Virus record (IMG/VR): IMGVR_UViG_3300008120_000239
Coordinates: 1-62,086 of that record
DNA from: a virus
Taxonomy: Duplodnaviria; Caudoviricetes
Strand: one strand, 5' to 3'
DNA: 62,086 nt
A program made the translations under genes and the position numbers. Positions 40,188 through 62,086 of the stretch are shown here, one piece after another. The first letter of the stretch is position 1; each line of letters begins with the position of its first letter. Under the pieces are notes generated by a model. That model searched no databases. It saw only the letters and a program-made list of their open reading frames with translations, and had not been told where the DNA came from.

Positions 40188-40326
40188 AGCTATAGCCATA
40201 ATAGCTGCTATTAAATTATTGATCTAACTTATTAGCTTATTTTGATCTAAATTTATATTAGATCTATTAAGATCTTATTAAGCTTAGAGATCTATTAAGA
40301 TCTTAGATCTATTGATCTTATAGATC
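40188..40326. repeat. GATC/AGCT palindrome-dense non-coding array; putative replication origin
   Basis: Nine GATC sites (40221, 40244, 40261, 40271, 40289, 40299, 40306, 40314, 40323) and four AGCT sites in an ORF-free AT-rich tract near the strand switch. Confidence 0.6.
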
Positions 40327-40346
40327 ATAGTGTCTCTGTTGTCCCA

Positions 40347-40381
40347 ACTAATATACGAAATTTTTGTATACGATGCAAGCA
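40347..40381 (-). promoter_or_regulatory. Promoter TGCTTG-N20-TATATTAGT firing into the GATC array
   Basis: Exact motif copy on the minus strand. Confidence 0.75.
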
Positions 40382-41086: not shown

Positions 41087-41121
41087 TGCTTGCATATATT
41101 GAAATTTTTACGTATATTAGT
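41087..41121 (+). promoter_or_regulatory. Promoter TGCTTG-N20-TATATTAGT
   Basis: Exact motif copy heading the plus-strand block. Confidence 0.75.
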
Positions 41122-43896: not shown

Positions 43897-43968
43897 GATC
43901 CTATCGACTAACGGTTAGGTCACTACCCTTTCAAGGTAGCAGTACGGGTTCAAATCCCGTTAGGATTA
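43897..43968 (+). tRNA. tRNA-Glu (TTC)
   Basis: Acceptor GATCCTA/TAGGATT; anticodon arm CTACC-CTTTCAA-GGTAG; T arm ACGGG-TTCAAAT-CCCGT; no encoded CCA. Confidence 0.92.
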
Positions 43969-43975
43969 CAAAAAT

Positions 43976-44049
43976 GGGCCTATAGCTCAATTGGTTAGAG
44001 CAAACGACTCATAATCGTTAGGTTGGGGGTTCAAGTCCCTCTGGGCCCA
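43976..44049 (+). tRNA. tRNA with CAT anticodon, most likely Ile2 (lysidine type)
   Basis: GGGCCTA/TGGGCCC acceptor; AACGA-CTCATAA-TCGTT anticodon arm. It lacks the three G-C pairs of initiator tRNA, and the acceptor resembles Ile2 tRNAs. Confidence 0.85.
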
Positions 44050-44067
44050 CTCATATAAGGAACATAT

Positions 44068-45212: not shown

Positions 45213-46676
45213 ATGAAAGATTTGGTTAAAGAGGGAAGAGAACTTCAAGATAGGGTTTTAGAAAACCTAAAAGAACAATCTTTTAGTGGTGATGCTGAGT
45301 CCGTAAAGGAATCTTCAACATATGAGGTAGTTATACCAAATTCATTTGATGCGTTTAAAAAAATAACAGGTATGAGTAGAATAGATTTGAGTAAGGTAAA
45401 ACCAAAAGTTGCCTTTCAAATCTTTTGTGCTTTAGCAAAAAAGGGTTCAACCGAAAGTGATGTAGATAAATTTAAAACATTCGTTGTAGTGTCAACTGAA
45501 GATGGTGACACCTTTGCTTTTGATGGTAAAGGTAAAACCATCAACACAGCAAACGTTTTTCGTTCAACACAACTTTCGAGTTCAACATTCAAGTTCGGTG
45601 CAAATAGGGGTAAAGTTATTTTGTCAAAACCCGAAGAACGTGGAATTGGAAATACCATAGATACACTGTATAAGCAATCTGCAAAAGATTTTGCGGATTT
45701 TAAAAAACGAACAAAAGAAAAAATAGGATTAGGTAAAAAGAAATTAGGATTGGGTGGGGAGACTGTTGTAAAAGATACAAATGAATTAACGGTAATAATG
45801 CCTAATTCATTAGAATCTTTGAAAAGTATAACAGACAAAGATGATTTCAATTATAAAATAACAAAGTCCGATGGGCAAGTCGCATACCAAATTTTTGTCG
45901 TTGTGCATAAAGATAGTTCAAAAAACTTTAATAGTAAAGAATATAAAACTATAACTGTTTATGCAAACGGTGATGGTACACATCAAATATTTGACCACCG
46001 TGATAAAAAAATTACAATAGATGAATTGATGAAGGTAACGGGTTTACCTCGTTCACTGTTTAGATATGGTGCAAATGAGGGTGAAATATTCCAATTAGAA
46101 ACCGAATTTAAACCAAAAAATACATTAGACTTATTAAAACACATCTTTACAAACAGTCAAAAGGACGGTGATAACAAAGCTCCATTCTTTAAAAAACAAC
46201 AGACTCAAAAGAAAGACGGTATGCTTAAACAAATTGCAAAGGGTGTTATAAATAAAATAAAGTCTAAGCGTGAAATAAAAGAAGAAGATGGTGAAGAAAC
46301 ACCACAGACAAAACAAATTCCAACTACAAATGCGGATTCACGTGTCGTACTTGATAATAAGGATGTAAAAATATCAATCCCAAGAAGTGTAGAATTTATA
46401 AGGGATGTTAGTAAGGATACGAAATGGATGGTGACGGGTGGAACATTCGGCGGATCAGAATTTGACAAGTATAAAAAAGAAAAATATACTATTTATATCA
46501 TAGAAGTGAAAAAAGAATCACCGACTTACAGCAATAGATTGATGCGAAAAGTGGCAGTTTTAGTTAATGCTTCCAATCAAATTACTTGCTATGATGTGAT
46601 GGATAACTTGGTCGATTTACAAAAAGTTTTAAAAATAGCAAATACAAATAGATCCTTTTTCAAAAAAATGATGTAA
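45213..46676 (+). CDS. Protein with three tandem related domains, possibly head-packaged
   Basis: Three repeats V.IP.S......YQIF/YTIY...K...V......D..D..I...V.......S.F; ATATTTAT at 45168; start placed at MKDLVKE. Confidence 0.65.
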   Translation: MKDLVKEGRELQDRVLENLKEQSFSGDAESVKESSTYEVVIPNSFDAFKKITGMSRIDLSKVKPKVAFQIFCALAKKGSTESDVDKFKTFVVVSTEDGDTFAFDGKGKTINTANVFRSTQLSSSTFKFGANRGKVILSKPEERGIGNTIDTLYKQSAKDFADFKKRTKEKIGLGKKKLGLGGETVVKDTNELTVIMPNSLESLKSITDKDDFNYKITKSDGQVAYQIFVVVHKDSSKNFNSKEYKTITVYANGDGTHQIFDHRDKKITIDELMKVTGLPRSLFRYGANEGEIFQLETEFKPKNTLDLLKHIFTNSQKDGDNKAPFFKKQQTQKKDGMLKQIAKGVINKIKSKREIKEEDGEETPQTKQIPTTNADSRVVLDNKDVKISIPRSVEFIRDVSKDTKWMVTGGTFGGSEFDKYKKEKYTIYIIEVKKESPTYSNRLMRKVAVLVNASNQITCYDVMDNLVDLQKVLKIANTNRSFFKKMM

Positions 46677-49571: not shown

Positions 49572-49606
49572 TGCTTGGATCGTATTCCAAAATTCCTTAT
49601 ATTAGT
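49572..49606 (+). promoter_or_regulatory. Promoter TGCTTG-N20-TATATTAGT directly upstream of a hairpin sRNA
   Basis: Exact motif copy. Confidence 0.75.
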
Positions 49607-49611
49607 ACTAT

Positions 49612-49700
49612 AAATTGATAAATGATGAATTCGGCAGATTTGGTAGGACCGCTCCTCCACAACCAACTATCCACCCTACCATTTCTGTCGGTGTTTTTTT
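49612..49700 (+). ncRNA. Candidate hairpin sRNA with C-rich anti-SD loop
   Basis: Stem 49631-49647/49675-49691, 27-nt loop containing CTCCTCC, T7 tract, own promoter. Confidence 0.6.
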
Positions 49701-51019: not shown

Positions 51020-51031
51020 AGGAGCGGTCAT

Positions 51032-57361: not shown

Positions 57362-57973
57362 ATGAATTATAAGCGAATATACAATAATCTTATGAAGTCT
57401 CGTCTTAAACTAAAGAAGGTGAGAATCGAAGAAAAACGTTCAGGTAGTTACTTTGAATGTCATCACATAGTACCGAAGTCTATGGGTGGTGAGGGAAGAC
57501 TCAAATCATACAAAGACTTAGAACATAAAAATATTGTAGTGCTAACTGCCCGTGAACATTATATTGCACATGCCCTATTGTGGAAGATACACAGAACACG
57601 TGAAATGGCGATGGCCTTTCGTGCCATGTGCAACATTGCAAAGGGCGGTAAGAAAAGAAACTATGAACAGAAGTATGTTGTGTCTTCACGGTTATACGAT
57701 GACCTCAGAAGTGATTTAAAACGTGTGGGGGTTTCAGACGAAGTTAAGGAACGTCTTAGACAACATAATCTCGGTAAAAAACTTTCACCCGAACATGTAG
57801 AGAAGATTAGACGTGCAAGATTGGGACGAAAGATGTCAGAAGAGGCAAAAGAAAAATTACGTGTTTATAGGACGGGAAGGAAGATGCCACCCGAAGCAAT
57901 CGAAAAAACCCGTCAGGCAAACATTTTAAGAAATAAATTATTACGTGAACAGAGGTTAAACAATGAGCAATAA
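57362..57973 (+). CDS. HNH homing endonuclease with NUMOD3 repeats
   Basis: MNYKRIY...ECHHIVPKSMGG...NIVVLTAREHYIAHALL. Confidence 0.88.
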   Translation: MNYKRIYNNLMKSRLKLKKVRIEEKRSGSYFECHHIVPKSMGGEGRLKSYKDLEHKNIVVLTAREHYIAHALLWKIHRTREMAMAFRAMCNIAKGGKKRNYEQKYVVSSRLYDDLRSDLKRVGVSDEVKERLRQHNLGKKLSPEHVEKIRRARLGRKMSEEAKEKLRVYRTGRKMPPEAIEKTRQANILRNKLLREQRLNNEQ

Positions 57974-58736
57974 CAATAATAATAATCGGTCATTTCCGTT
58001 AACACAGAGTGAAAGAAGTAAATTATTATGGGAAAACCGTAGAAAAAATGGTTGGGTGTCATCACGTACAGGAACGAAACATACCGAAGAAACTAAGAAA
58101 AAAATGAAAGAGGCATGGGAACGTAGACGTGAACGTAATTGGTCATATAGACATACACCTGAACAATTAGAAAGACTAAAAAATAATATAAAAAATTCAC
58201 CCCTTGCACAAGAAGCTCTTAAAAGACTTCACGAAAGCAATCGTGGAAAAAAAAGAACTCCTGAACAAAGGATACAACTATCAAAAACACTTAAAACATT
58301 TTATGCTGAGAACCCTGATAAAATAAGAAGGGGATATAAAACGGGACGTAAGATTCCTGAAGGATGTACCTTTAAAGGTAGGCGTCATACTGAAGAGGCA
58401 CTACAAAAACTGAGAGAGGCGAGTACAGGTAGAAAGATGTCAGATGCGGTAAAGGCAAAGATGAGAGAAACAAGACGTAAAAAAATGGAACTGAAGATTA
58501 TTGAAATGAGAGAATTGGGGTTTGAACGCACTTCATATGGTTGGAGAAAAATAAAAGTACCTAAAATCAAACCACCTGTAATTAAGAAAAAACGTGCGGT
58601 AAAGGAAGTGGTTAATCAGAAACCATCAACTAAGAGAGAAATTGTACTTAACGAGGTAAAATGGATGGATGTCAATAGAATATTTGATAAGATTTCAAAG
58701 TTAAGTGGAAATACAAATGGTGTTCAAGGTGGGTAA
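57963..58736 (+). CDS. NUMOD3-repeat DNA-binding protein without a recognisable nuclease domain
   Basis: GTKHTEETKKKM, GKKRTPEQR, GRRHTEEALQKL, GRKMSDAVKAKM. Confidence 0.7.
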   Translation: MSNNNNNNRSFPLTQSERSKLLWENRRKNGWVSSRTGTKHTEETKKKMKEAWERRRERNWSYRHTPEQLERLKNNIKNSPLAQEALKRLHESNRGKKRTPEQRIQLSKTLKTFYAENPDKIRRGYKTGRKIPEGCTFKGRRHTEEALQKLREASTGRKMSDAVKAKMRETRRKKMELKIIEMRELGFERTSYGWRKIKVPKIKPPVIKKKRAVKEVVNQKPSTKREIVLNEVKWMDVNRIFDKISKLSGNTNGVQGG

Positions 58737-58744
58737 AAAAGAAA

Positions 58745-59030
58745 TAACCCCCACAGGGGGTGTTCAAACAAAGGTTTCTCTAGTCAAAAAATTCTGGGGC
58801 CGATAGAAAAAGACACCCCCCGGCACTGCGTAGCCCTACCTAGGGGCGGGGGTTTACAGTTAATAGCCCCACCCCCCCCTCCGGGTCTCAATTACAGTAC
58901 AAATATACACAATTTCCACCACATAAACAAGCACTATTTTTGGGGTGATCAAAATAAAGTGCTTGGAAATTAGGGGTAAATTCCGTATCTTCCCGAACCC
59001 CCCGCGGGGGTATGGGGTGTATGGGAAATA
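58745..59030. other. GC-rich palindromic island; putative genome terminus/packaging or origin-associated site
   Basis: G/C runs and palindromes (CCCCCACAGGGGG, CCCCCGCGGGGG) in an otherwise very AT-rich sequence, next to divergent promoters. Confidence 0.45.
58899..58933 (-). promoter_or_regulatory. Leftward promoter TGCTTG-N20-TATATTTGT
   Basis: Exact copy; no ORF downstream. Confidence 0.75.
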
Positions 59031-59041
59031 AAAAAAATAAT

Positions 59042-59273
59042 TGCTTGGATCTGTTCTCAAAATTGACTATATTTGTACTGTTCTTTGATACAATGACACG
59101 GAATGACAACGGAAACAAGAAAGTTTCCACCAAGTAAAAAAAGTGCTTGGCTATGTGCTCAAAATTACTTATATTTGTTCTATGTTTGAGACATGAGGAA
59201 ACAAGACAGTTTCCACCGAGTAAAAAAAAATAAAAAAGTGCTTGCGTATGTGGTTTGAATTCCGTATATTTGT
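59042..59273 (+). promoter_or_regulatory. Three tandem early promoters (59042-59076, 59144-59178, 59239-59273)
   Basis: Each is TGCTTG-N20-TATATTTGT with an upstream A tract; spacing is about 100 bp. Confidence 0.8.
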
Positions 59274-59309
59274 ATAAGAAAGTTTGACACAACAACATTG
59301 GAGAATGTT

Positions 59310-59420
59310 ATGAGACGAACCTATGAGAGACCCATGCGGTCAAGTGGAGACGGTGCTTTTATGGCCTTTATGTTCTTTGCAATATGGATTGCGGTAGTAG
59401 TAGTATCATACTCACTATAA
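59310..59420 (+). CDS. Small basic-N/TM peptide (36 aa)
   Basis: MRRTYERPMRSSGDGAFMAFMFFAIWIAVVVVSYSL; TTGGAGAATGTT leader. Confidence 0.6.
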   Translation: MRRTYERPMRSSGDGAFMAFMFFAIWIAVVVVSYSL

Positions 59421-59445
59421 TAAAAATACCATAGGAGAATGGGCT

Positions 59446-59823
59446 ATGCTTAAGAAGAACCCAAGATGGATCGAGTTGGATGCCGATAAGGAATTCTTAT
59501 TGAGGATGCTATCCACAAGACAGAGAGACGGTGCTATTATTGCTGAGTTGAATGCTGTTACTGCTGAGTTGGCCAATACACCAATGATGATAGATAGTAA
59601 AAAAGTTAAACCTATCAAGGTTGCTAAGGATAGGACTGTAAAAACACCTAAGGCAGATAAACCGCCGAAAGTGTGGGTGCCGAAGACTATCAAGGATATA
59701 CGGCCACCAAGACCCATGAGGAACTACAAGGCTGTGCTTACGGATGCTAACGATATACAATATAAATTGATTATATCAAGGTTGCGTGGTTGTCCTACAC
59801 ATAGACACTTTCAAGAAATATAA
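59446..59823 (+). CDS. Early hypothetical protein
   Basis: GGAGAATG RBS. Confidence 0.65.
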   Translation: MLKKNPRWIELDADKEFLLRMLSTRQRDGAIIAELNAVTAELANTPMMIDSKKVKPIKVAKDRTVKTPKADKPPKVWVPKTIKDIRPPRPMRNYKAVLTDANDIQYKLIISRLRGCPTHRHFQEI

Positions 59824-59845
59824 TAATACCATAGGAGAATGGCGT

Positions 59846-60010
59846 ATGTATGAAGATGATTTGTATGACATTATGCGGGATGATAGGCGTTGGAATGAGT
59901 CCCTTGATAAGACCTATGATTGCCGTTGTATGTTCGATGATTTTGACGGTATTACAGATATTGAATACCTTGTCAATAACACACGACTTGGCACGAATGT
60001 AAAAAAATAA
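59846..60010 (+). CDS. Small acidic early protein
   Basis: GGAGAATG RBS; MYEDDLYDIM... Confidence 0.6.
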   Translation: MYEDDLYDIMRDDRRWNESLDKTYDCRCMFDDFDGITDIEYLVNNTRLGTNVKK

Positions 60011-60015
60011 TATAG

Positions 60016-60050
60016 TGCTTGCTTAGTATTACAAAAATGATTATATTTGT
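60016..60050 (+). promoter_or_regulatory. Early promoter TGCTTG-N20-TATATTTGT
   Basis: Exact copy. Confidence 0.78.
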
Positions 60051-60071
60051 ACTATCATAACGGAGAATGAT

Positions 60072-60239
60072 ATGGATATATTTGATGCCATCATGGACAT
60101 AGAGTGTAATGATGTAACACAAGAGAGATACATTGAATGCTACCAAACACTAATAGATAGTGGTGTGGTATGGGAACTACAAGGTTCACATGGTAGAACT
60201 GCATCAATGCTAATAGAGGAGGGCTACTGCCATGAGTAA
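60072..60239 (+). CDS. Small early phage protein (55 aa, W.LQG..GR.A..LIE.G family)
   Basis: Manual ORF MDIFDAIMDIE...QTLIDSGVVWELQGSHGRTASMLIEEGYCHE; CGGAGAATGA RBS. Confidence 0.75.
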   Translation: MDIFDAIMDIECNDVTQERYIECYQTLIDSGVVWELQGSHGRTASMLIEEGYCHE

Positions 60240-60420
60240 GGAATGGATTGATAACAATGCCCCATACCTATCACAACGATTGTATGACTTGGCACAAACA
60301 AATAGAAAGTTGAAAGACTACGAAACTGCTTCGCTATTGGCTACACTTGCTACTGACTTATGGGTTGGTAACATGACTGAATACAAATATCAACTACTAT
60401 CTGAATGGTTATCACAATGA
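60232..60420 (+). CDS. Small early protein
   Basis: Coupled ORF; GAGGAGG upstream. Confidence 0.6.
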   Translation: MSKEWIDNNAPYLSQRLYDLAQTNRKLKDYETASLLATLATDLWVGNMTEYKYQLLSEWLSQ

Positions 60421-60524
60421 GAAGAAGATATGTTAGGAGAAGTGGGTTCATTGATAGGACATTGAGTGGGCTGATTCAAGTGGTTATGCTACTGATACTC
60501 ATTAAATGGTTGATAGGCTACTGA
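60417..60524 (+). CDS. Small basic-N/TM peptide (35 aa)
   Basis: MRRRYVRRSGFIDRTLSGLIQVVMLLILIKWLIGY; ATGA coupling to the upstream ORF. Confidence 0.55.
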   Translation: MRRRYVRRSGFIDRTLSGLIQVVMLLILIKWLIGY

Positions 60525-60529
60525 CAATT

Positions 60530-60606
60530 TCATTCTCCGATGAAGGCATGGGCGTACATTGTATTCCCACCCACATTCTCCAACGGTGTGCGTCCATGTC
60601 ATTTTT
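60530..60606 (+). ncRNA. Candidate hairpin sRNA antisense to the GGAGAATG early-gene leader
   Basis: 18-bp stem (60545-60562/60583-60600) with five G.U pairs; 20-nt loop containing ACATTCTCCA; second CATTCTCC at 60531; T tract. Confidence 0.68.
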
Positions 60607-61042
60607 GTATCACAATAGGATATGCTGTGTGCTATATGGAAACAAAACACAACGAAACGGCATTCAGACCATTGGCAGATATTGATACTATTACACATAG
60701 GCTACTATTACTGTGTCTATTCACTATCTCAATATGTGCGGTTATCTACCATTATAGTAAAGATAAAAATGTATTACCTACTGCTAAGGCATTGAATGGC
60801 AATTATTATGTTAATAGTTATTTCAGTAGTAACGAAGTATCATTATGCCCTAAAAGAATTAAGAAAGGGCGTTGGCAGAGATTGAGAATGTATCACGCTT
60901 AATATAGGATATACTATGTTTGATGTAGATGATGATGATATTATATGGGCAATTGTTATACTTGGTAGTGTTATGTTTGCCATTATGAATCCCTTTAGAT
61001 AACTTATAGTATTATTATTATAGATACCGTCAAGGAATTATT

Positions 61043-61192
61043 ATGAAACCGTTTTCAAGAACCGATAGAGGCAGAACCCTAAAGAAGATGTATGACACTT
61101 GGGTATATCTTGGTAAATTTGATTTGGCAAGGCAGACTATGGATGTTATGACAAAGGAATCAAAACAATACTTTGCCTTGCATAAAAAATAA
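61043..61192 (+). CDS. Small early protein (49 aa)
   Basis: Manual ORF MKPFSRTDRGRTLKKMYDTW...; AAGGA RBS. Confidence 0.55.
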   Translation: MKPFSRTDRGRTLKKMYDTWVYLGKFDLARQTMDVMTKESKQYFALHKK

Positions 61193-61227
61193 TGCTTGGC
61201 TATTAGGATTAAATTCATTATATTTGT
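61193..61227 (+). promoter_or_regulatory. Early promoter TGCTTG-N20-TATATTTGT
   Basis: Exact copy; part of a duplicated promoter-leader cassette. Confidence 0.78.
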
Positions 61228-61250
61228 TTAGTATTACATTGGAGAATGTT

Positions 61251-61502
61251 ATGAACGATATTACACTTACCCCACAAACCCCTATTTGCGAGATTGCAGA
61301 GATTATCCGTGAGGATTGGCACCATATTAGTTATAGTGCTGCTCCCTATCTTGATGCAATGGATGAATTATACACTCTTGATGATGTGTATGGTTATGAT
61401 GATGCAAAATCTATTATCCTTTATTTCCTATCAAATGCAGGCCATTGGAAAGGTGCCCTTGCAAGAGAAGTAAAGGCACACCTGAAATCACTTGTAAAAT
61501 AA
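61251..61502 (+). CDS. Conserved early phage protein (IA..I..DW...A.PYL.AM...YFLSNA..W.G family)
   Basis: Recognisable motif; TTGGAGAATGTT leader. Confidence 0.75.
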   Translation: MNDITLTPQTPICEIAEIIREDWHHISYSAAPYLDAMDELYTLDDVYGYDDAKSIILYFLSNAGHWKGALAREVKAHLKSLVK

Positions 61503-61522
61503 TTTTACATACCGCGATTATT

Positions 61523-61557
61523 TGCTTGGCTATTACATCTAAATTCCTTATATTTGT
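61523..61557 (+). promoter_or_regulatory. Early promoter TGCTTG-N20-TATATTTGT
   Basis: Exact copy. Confidence 0.78.
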
Positions 61558-61580
61558 TTCGTATTACATTGGAGAATGTT

Positions 61581-61880
61581 ATGAGAAAGATTACAGAATT
61601 GGCAGCCCGTGCCTTTATCAATAGAAAACCATTTCGCCGTGCTAACACATGGACAGATGGAACCACTCTTTATCTACATGGCAATGTCATTGCCCGTTGG
61701 GATGTTGGTATATTGCAGATTCGTTCTGCGGGTTGGGAATCCAATACCACAAAGGAAAGATTGAATGGCGTCCTATCTTTATTAAACCTACCCCGTATTA
61801 CACAAAGAAACTATCAATGGTATATTGGTGATAGGCCTTGGATAAATTCATCCCTTTTTATTCTACCACAACTACAATAA
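61581..61880 (+). CDS. Conserved early phage protein (MRKI...LHGN.IA...GW.S.TTK.RLN family)
   Basis: Recognisable motif; TTGGAGAATGTT leader. Confidence 0.75.
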   Translation: MRKITELAARAFINRKPFRRANTWTDGTTLYLHGNVIARWDVGILQIRSAGWESNTTKERLNGVLSLLNLPRITQRNYQWYIGDRPWINSSLFILPQLQ

Positions 61881-61910
61881 ATTTATTATACTTACCGTGA
61901 GGATTTTGTT

Positions 61911-62086
61911 ATGTCTATACGATATATTCCACTTGGCTACAACAGCATTGAAGAATATAGAGAAAGAACTCGTAAGAGTAAGGAAGCATATTGGAACAAA
62001 TATACCGAGAGATTGAGTAGTGTGGTTGATACTACACGGGCACATACTCTGCAAGATATGACTGCTGACTTGGAGATACTTGCTAC
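61911..62086 (+). CDS. Hypothetical protein, truncated by the window end
   Basis: GAGGA RBS; MSIRYIPLGYNSIEEYRE... open to the end. Confidence 0.55.
   Translation, partial: MSIRYIPLGYNSIEEYRERTRKSKEAYWNKYTERLSSVVDTTRAHTLQDMTADLEILA

Follow-up and report, generated by a model that had tools for sequence, protein, structure and literature searches.

Can the hairpin at the end of an early phage transcription unit also act, through its unpaired bases, on the translation of the genes that are transcribed with it? The question is raised by a locus in a 62,086-nt linear IMG/VR virus record of an uncultured freshwater phage (IMGVR_UViG_3300008120_000239; G+C 32%; estimated completeness 35%), which in its whole length is called the window below and which, to judge from its baseplate wedge and hub proteins, belongs to a T4-like myovirus. 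The element in question, named H2 here, is a plus-strand hairpin just upstream of a gene for an 88-aa protein, and both unpaired parts of the element hold a CAUUCUCC box that complements the leader (Shine-Dalgarno sequence plus spacer) common to six early genes. A terminator hairpin with two such anti-leader stretches suggests an RNA-based feedback on early protein synthesis. I consider it probable that H2 serves as a terminator or attenuator of immediate-early units; that the boxes are functional in leader pairing I would place slightly short of an even chance.

A plus-strand hairpin complementary to six early leaders

The original prediction for this locus, made from the sequence, had described a stem of 18 positions with five G.U pairs, a 20-nt loop and a T tract, and all of these were recovered at the same positions (Table 1). 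The G.U pairs are 60546-99, 60552-93, 60555-90, 60559-86 and 60560-85, so that on the plus strand every non-Watson-Crick pair of the stem is a G.U pair (5/5) and none is an A.C pair, a pattern that points to selection on a plus-strand RNA. The minimum free energy (MFE) of the 91-nt stretch 60525-60615 is -29.9 kcal/mol on the plus strand (z -4.72), where none of 200 shuffles folds as well, versus -21.1 on the minus strand (z -0.91), where 39 of 200 shuffles are equally good, which upholds the claim that this is an RNA structure and not a DNA palindrome. In a stability scan of 12,404 segments of 70 nt taken from both strands (mean -8.3, standard deviation 3.8), the H2 site ranked third with -27.1, and its distance from the value of the other strand (-14.4) is the largest strand gap among the 26 most stable sites listed.

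H2 is non-coding, because two related strains seen in RNA runs, in which the strains show 5-9% DNA divergence, have one extra nucleotide in the loop, within its 5' half, and because the homologues of the downstream 88-aa protein are 88 aa long in 7/7 cases and start at the equivalent of 60636. Among these homologues, P0002-P0007 show 63-84% identity, and two of them are encoded on contigs of 60 kb and 101 kb. The coding reading of the 120-aa open reading frame (ORF) 60540-60902 was ruled out on these two grounds. In protein searches across H2, the 120-aa ORF returned 88-aa forms only, its first 40 residues, compared with shorter proteins, returned nothing, and a minus-strand 69-aa ORF across H2 had no protein-database match. 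Rfam likewise gave no match to H2 at the gathering threshold or at E <= 1, the c4 family included.

The core of the shared leaders, GGAGAATG, has six copies in the window, each 6-8 nt ahead of an early start codon (range 59300-61578), and its reverse complement has exactly two copies in the whole 62 kb, at 60531 and 60574, 43 nt apart. Counted on both strands, these eight matches all fall within 2.3 kb and compare with 1.67 +/- 1.27 expected; eight was reached by 0/100 shuffles. Box 2, ACATTCTCCAA, is the exact reverse complement of the 11-mer TTGGAGAATGT common to genes 59310, 61251 and 61581, as had been claimed together with the presence of the 8-nt core before genes 59446, 59846 and 60072, and the agreement is far beyond chance. 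Box 1, TCATTCTCCG, had been missed; it complements the leader of gene 60072, CGGAGAATGA, without a mismatch. The string CATTCTCC occurs only twice in the window, both times in the H2 region and once in each box. This clustering of eight copies, four of which lie 20-30 nt downstream of early promoters, could also be read at the level of DNA, with TTGGAGAATGT as an operator for a regulator of early promoters that binds double-stranded DNA and with the two inverted copies as further sites. However, all six forward copies keep their 6-8 nt spacing from a start codon, including the promoter-less ones at 59434 and 59834, which fits a ribosome site, and the G.U pairs of the hairpin favour a role at the RNA level; an operator is therefore held to be very improbable.

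How selective would pairing with these leaders be? The original prediction had expected the genes with the shared leader to come out on top of a ranking of start regions, and they did: when the H2 loop was scored against positions -25..+10 of the 72 putative start regions in the window, the six GGAGAATG genes took ranks 1, 2, 3, 4, 5 and 8, and when the 5' box was scored they took ranks 1-6. Among composition-preserving shuffles of the loop, its best single energy is ordinary (75/400 match it) and its fifth-best is reached by 0/400, and for the 5' box the best and the fifth-best energies are each reached by 0/400. Cofolding with the 81-nt RNA 60526-60606 gave -7.8 to -9.9 kcal/mol for the six leaders versus 0 to -4.3 for 11 other start regions. 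The predicted fold of H2 leaves the loop and the 5' box exposed, and the element is thereby predicted to have what is expected of a small RNA (sRNA), an exposed seed with preferential pairing to target starts. When the presumed transcript 60052-60612 is folded as a whole, positions 60055-58 and 60061-70 pair with 60530-43 over 14 bp in both the MFE and the centroid structure, and in this predicted fold the ribosome site of gene 60072 is buried with H2 intact.

Two further possible partners of the loop were noted. The stretch GGAGAAGTGGGT at 60435-60446, inside the small ORF 60417-60524, complements the loop with one bulge (-20.6) and, lying on H2's own transcript, might pair with it in cis instead. 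A plus-strand hairpin at 58961-59030, G+C-rich and overlapping a degenerate promoter copy, is the segment ranked 4th in the stability scan (-26.5) and is among the best predicted partners of the loop (-20.9).

Table 1. Coordinates of H2, its anti-leader boxes, the leaders they complement and associated features in the window.
Feature	Position	Strand	Remarks
RNA hairpin H2	60545..60600	+	18 bp including 5 G.U; from fold and stability scan
H2 parts	60545-60562; 60563-60582; 60583-60600		5' arm; 20-nt G-free loop; 3' arm
T run (U tract)	60602..60606	+	TTTTT starting 1 base past the H2 stem; appears together with H2 in the terminator scan
Anti-leader box 1, TCATTCTCCG	60530..60539	+	Weakly structured stretch directly 5' of H2; complements leader of gene 60072
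Anti-leader box 2, ACATTCTCCAA	60573..60583	+	Loop and first stem base; complements leaders at 59298, 61239 and 61569
Leader TTGGAGAATGT of gene 59310	59298..59308	+	Gene for 36-aa membrane-type protein
GGAGAATG ahead of gene 59446	59434..59441	+	
GGAGAATG ahead of gene 59846	59834..59841	+	
Leader CGGAGAATGA of gene 60072	60061..60070	+	First gene in the unit ending at H2; GGAGAATG at 60062
Leader TTGGAGAATGT of gene 61251	61239..61249	+	
Leader TTGGAGAATGT of gene 61581	61569..61579	+	Kyano_Gp96 family
Early promoter CTTG-N20-TATATTTG	59241..59272	+	Upstream of gene 59310
Early promoter of 60072-60524 unit	60018..60049	+	Transcript start inferred near 60054
88-aa gene	60636..60902	+	Directly 3' of H2; without own promoter
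Second hairpin element, H1	49574..49700	+	Promoter 49574-49605; hairpin 49631-49691; T run 49694-49700

Transcriptional setting and proposed feedback

The early region uses promoters of the extended consensus TGCTTG-N20-TATATTTG, found on the plus strand at 59044, 59146, 59241, 60018, 61195 and 61525 and on the minus strand at 58931, and a TATATTAG variant of it stands at 41089, 49574, 53131 and 55561 on the plus strand and at 40379 on the minus strand. No extended-consensus promoter lies between 60018 and 61195, and H2 therefore has no promoter of its own and is to be seen as the 3' end of early operon transcripts rather than as a stand-alone sRNA gene. The units that begin at 59241 and 60018 both run up to H2, the last small genes ahead of it being 60072, 60232 and 60417, and the genes 60636-61192 beyond it need read-through because they are without a promoter of their own. 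This setting bears directly on the original prediction, which had pictured a separate gene for a trans-acting sRNA of 60-80 nt, used as an early-to-late switch or a multi-target antitoxin. The exposed loop and 5' box and the place of the leaders at the top of the start-region ranking would suit such a gene, but the upstream consensus promoter is missing, H2 is co-transcribed with its targets from early promoters, the target genes show no sign of a toxin and the feature is not conserved in the syntenic relative considered below. A stand-alone sRNA gene is quite improbable on these grounds, and nothing supports the switch or the antitoxin, the RNA coming from the same early promoters as its targets.

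H2 is the sole plus-strand terminator-like hairpin found in 59000-62086, its stable stem is followed directly by a U tract as in intrinsic terminators, and, as in sRNAs derived from 3' ends, its terminator is common to the upstream mRNA and no promoter of its own precedes it. In the mechanism proposed here, the stem-loop and U tract would end the immediate-early transcripts that start at 59241 and 60018, as an intrinsic terminator or a leaky attenuator, and would in this way gate the promoter-less genes 60636-61192. The boxes would base-pair with the GGAGAAUG leaders and lower the translation of early genes as the amount of early RNA rises. Within its own transcript, in cis, the 5' box would close onto the leader and hide gene 60072's ribosome site; the other leaders would be reached in trans by both boxes, probably as a nuclease-resistant 3' fragment of the operon mRNA protected by the hairpin. 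Such a device would be a feedback and not a timer, because the H2 RNA is made from the promoters of its own targets.

Proposed pairing, possible inheritance and a second hairpin

A number of results weigh against this proposal. The 20-nt loop is atypical of intrinsic terminators, for which a short loop is expected (3-8 nt in a consensus scan for terminators), and that scan did not list H2. A second RNA-run contig, 59563-60944, spans H2, and therefore termination, if real, is leaky, or the material is DNA. When duplexes with the H2 loop were scanned at all positions of the plus strand, the six leaders ranked only 15, 23, 25, 26, 31 and 50, and G-rich sites at 45727, 58996 and 60436 pair better with the loop than the leaders do. 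To these are added the comparison with relatives and part of the evidence on the origin of the boxes, both set out in the following paragraphs. As to the RNA contigs, another one from a metatranscriptome (60092-60588, depth 20.7), which adjoins an upstream depth-3 contig, stops inside the 3' arm of H2, with the limit that contigs cannot show RNA ends; both runs with RNA contigs belong to one study, and RNA run X19 is without RNA-contig cover at 58700-59151 and 60960-61525. Taken together, the contigs hint only weakly that the locus is transcribed, that the promoter at 60018 is active and that termination is leaky.

Relatives close enough to compare are few. A DNA search of the phage database with 59000-62086 gave no match, and no close relative was found in the phage database, in IMG/VR or among genome contigs. 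A search of viral contigs, which used an exact 23-mer, four neighbouring proteins, two alignments and the promoter-leader pattern, returned only distant Gp96-like loci (L002-L009); 13 other loci (L010-L022) were set aside as chance pattern matches. Metagenome contigs gave 79 loci, of which a single one, L023 (3.9 kb), is syntenic, and it is also the only syntenic one among the 100 loci compared; it has matches to six of 12 early proteins, and the neighbouring 62-aa protein is 80% identical. The leaders of L023 are GGAGACTG or other GGAGA variants, the string TCTCC is absent from the whole corresponding strand, which leaves L023 with no anti-leader, and its intergenic hairpin is long and imperfect, lacks a U tract, is more stable on the opposite strand and does not favour the local leaders as partners. 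Repeated leader 8-mers of the other related loci have no leader-specific reverse complement on the same strand, with few exceptions, namely AAAAAGGA, A-rich and of low complexity, in L005 and L032 and, in L115, one site that is read as the leader of an opposite-strand gene. L115 comes from Microcystis phage Mel-JY01, the nearest isolate (its wedge protein is 67% identical, against 43.5% for the next nearest, Flavobacterium phages), which has other leaders, no H1- or H2-like hairpins in the 45 kb examined and no homologue of the window's 62-aa protein. Since L023 and these other loci are without an anti-leader, the feature is not ancestral at the distance of L023. The conservation of the loop, or its covariation with the ribosome-binding motif, that had been expected of a regulatory seed thus fails at that distance, the loop motif being absent from L023 with its GGAGACTG leaders.

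Could the boxes simply have been inherited from the leaders that they match? The reverse complement of 60520-60610 aligns with the cassettes at 59270-59430 (0/300 shuffles) and 61545-61660 (1/300), the aligned parts being the leader and first codons of the 59310 and 61581 cassettes, and even without the 11-mer the flank still resembles the start of gene 61581 (2/500 shuffles). An inverted partial duplication of a leader cassette is a plausible source of the H2 region on this evidence and fits the cassette shuffling documented in the early regions of T4-type phages (PMC4122927), and the boxes could be inherited and not selected. The original prediction had itself allowed for an ordinary terminator whose loop arose by chance or duplication; the duplication gains some support from the cassette and flank alignments, and such an origin leaves function undecided.

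The main rival to functional pairing builds on this history and makes H2 a plain terminator with a non-functional relic of an inverted early-cassette duplication, which recombination among the repeated promoter-leader cassettes would have produced. It draws on both cassette alignments, on the flank match, on the known shuffling of T4-type cassettes and on the lack of an anti-leader in L023 and the other related loci, yet several features of the boxes sit badly with it. The flanks appear to be heavily diverged while the 11-mer and the 10-mer are both perfect, which would be unexpected under neutral decay, and the similarity of the flanks to other cassettes is not significant in the five other comparisons (downstream 38 and 132 of 500 shuffles; upstream 87, 254 and 455 of 500). 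There are also two separate boxes, each matching a different leader class, and the stem seems to have been reshaped into a strand-specific RNA helix, whose G.U-only mismatches would reflect selection on the plus-strand RNA after any duplication. I regard the relic as somewhat unlikely, and the pairing of the boxes with the leaders as the preferred reading.

A further point against the relic comes from elsewhere in the window, where the stability scan brought out a second element, H1, with a similar relation of loop to ribosome site in an unrelated sequence. Its interrupted stem of 15 bp begins approximately 25 nt past a promoter and carries a 27-nt loop that is G-poor and C-rich, and its run of seven T stands just ahead of gene 49717. 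The ribosome site of gene 51032 in the same unit, AGGAGCGGTC (51020-51029), is complemented exactly by bases 49647-49656, and this gene comes first when the H1 loop is scored against the 72 start regions (-22.3; next -16.3), a result that shuffled H1 loops reach in 6/400. H1 is a candidate sRNA of ~85 nt or a candidate 5' attenuator. A hairpin-shape scan of ~0.78 Mb (the window and all fetched loci, both strands), which required a stem of 11 bp or more, a T tract and a loop of 12-40 nt poor in G and rich in C, found nine such hairpins, and the strongest two were H1 and H2. Homology between the two was tried and is not significant (136/500 shuffles), and because they are not detectably homologous H1 counts as an independent, if modest, replicate of a rule that matches large loops to nearby ribosome sites.

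The same pair of hairpins could be taken in another way, as conditional attenuators that gate delayed-early genes and whose loops bind a phage or host protein, either an antiterminator or an RNA-binding protein, the complementarity being a side effect of C/U-rich loops. Both H1 and H2 do stand directly ahead of promoter-less genes (from 49717 and from 60636 onward), H1 lies in a 5' leader right behind its promoter, the two have a rare large-loop shape in common, and an RNA contig reads through H2. However, loop composition is insufficient to explain the pairing, given the shuffles (0/400 for the fifth-best energy of H2 and 6/400 for H1), the loop does not include box 1, the loops of H1 and H2 have no significant sequence in common and no candidate factor was found, so that attenuation read by a factor is improbable. 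The widest claim that could be built on pairing, that a T4-like phage exerts translational RNA control through terminators with large C-rich loops, H2 acting on six early genes and H1 on gene 51032, is one that I would still call unlikely.

Known systems and neighbouring features

By analogy, the closest known case in mechanism is the c4 RNA of phages P1 and P7, which is processed from a precursor. Its loops complement the ribosome-binding region of target genes elsewhere in the same operon, and it blocks their translation (PMC12197685). H2 is like c4 in having loops that complement ribosome sites, a likeness of mechanism only, and H1 comes especially near in layout, its small hairpin RNA preceding the predicted target gene within one unit. 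In contrast, c4 belongs to temperate phages, where it acts on one antirepressor operon and serves immunity, whereas H2, placed at a 3' end, is at once a probable terminator and a would-be partner of six genes of a lytic T4-like phage, and it is without an Rfam match to the c4 family.

Among bacterial sRNAs, those derived from 3' untranslated regions or 3' ends, such as CpxQ and SroC, have no promoter of their own, use the terminator of the parent mRNA and base-pair in trans; their seed is usually single-stranded and 5' of the terminator, and, being RNAs of the host, they require Hfq or RNase E. H2 agrees with these in lacking its own promoter, in having its terminator in common with an mRNA and in the placement of box 1 5' of the terminator, but differs in that box 2 is inside the terminator loop. 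The sRNAs of the RsaE/RoxS type pair G-free, C-rich loops with the G-rich Shine-Dalgarno sequences of several mRNAs, and are conserved chromosomal Firmicute sRNAs with their own promoters. The loop of H2 is likewise G-free and C-rich, but there is no sequence relation to them and no Rfam match.

Within T4 itself, helices that sequester ribosome sites are found in the transcripts of e, soc, 49 and I-TevI, and the RegB nuclease inactivates early mRNAs through GGAG leaders, according to a 2010 T4 review (PMC3014915), which states that T4 had by then no characterised trans-acting regulatory RNA. Silencing by Shine-Dalgarno pairing in early or long transcripts would be common to T4 and H2, but the T4 helices described there are local, whereas the partner that H2 offers is ~470 nt off at the 3' end, or on another RNA. 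RegB, for its part, is a protein nuclease, and no RegB homologue is present in the window, which is ~35% of the genome; the leader core GGAGAAT (59300-61578) fits the first 7 positions of the strong RegB consensus GGAGRAYARAA quoted for T4 in that review. The literature covered held no T4-type trans-acting RNA, with the limit that Table S1 of PMC12197685, on sRNAs without a described function, fell outside that coverage and absence is not proven. Also described for T4-type phages is PeSL, a short stem-loop joined directly to an early promoter (PMC4122927). The locus recalls what is described there in its repeated regulatory cassettes, its hyperplastic early region and its stem-loops between early genes, and by analogy PeSL-type cassettes are a likely source of the duplicated leaders; unlike PeSL, H2 combines a stem of 18 bp with a loop of 20 nt and is ~590 nt away from the next promoter (61195). 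H2 is thus a member of none of these: not of c4 or other Rfam families, nor of the stand-alone sRNA genes, PeSL or the RegB system.

The known shut-off of early genes in T4-type phages works with protein tools, RegB cleavage and translational repressors, and with local RNA helices. If the widest claim above is true, H2 would be the first trans-acting, multi-target RNA directed against ribosome sites in a T4-type lytic phage, and the terminator loop itself would be the seed. With working boxes, one 3' end would coordinate six early genes by base-pairing, as a compact feedback device and a designable reporter part. With boxes that do not work, the locus would instead show how cassette shuffling can seed antisense complementarity beside a terminator.

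The surroundings of H2 also tell something of the phage and its host. Public runs with near-identical DNA number 20 and belong to 12 lake and freshwater studies, and the 99-aa protein of gene 61581 is a member of the Pfam family Kyano_Gp96. The early promoters of the window are of the -33/-7 type, with a final G at -5, that is described for Bacteroidetes (PMC6847099), and they would place the host in that phylum. In the whole record of Mel-JY01 (PP395634.1), the pattern CTTG-N19-23-TATATTTG has 10 matches versus 0 for a control pattern; its recorded host is Microcystis, yet the promoter pattern is of the Bacteroidetes type, and the recorded host may therefore merit re-examination.

Other parts of the early region carry possible signals of their own. 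The most stable 70-nt segment of the record (-31.6) lies on the minus strand at 58808-58933, where two G+C-rich hairpins and then a T run come after a consensus promoter (CTTG at 58931) with no evident ORF, and is a candidate structured RNA of ~80 nt. Tandem early promoters with no ORF behind them number two in the window (59044-59240) and ~7 in L023 (127-830), each followed by a short conserved GTTCTTTGATAC-like stretch and then a run of A, and could be sources of short RNAs, promoter decoys or recombination cassettes. A TTTTACATACCGTGAGGATTTT-like motif stands directly ahead of several genes, at 61881-61910 and 61500-61520 in the window and at 2505, 2881, 3421 and 3841 in L023, and could serve as a promoter for middle or late genes or as a cassette for translation initiation. 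Just upstream of the early control region, two neighbouring genes at 57362-58736 encode basic proteins, one with a NUMOD3 motif, suggesting homing-endonuclease-like genes. Further away, genes for tRNA-Glu(TTC) and tRNA-Met(CAT) lie within 43897-44050, and dense GATCT-containing repeats, direct and inverted, occupy 40261-40330, adjoining the minus-strand promoter at 40379 where the structural and early blocks meet.

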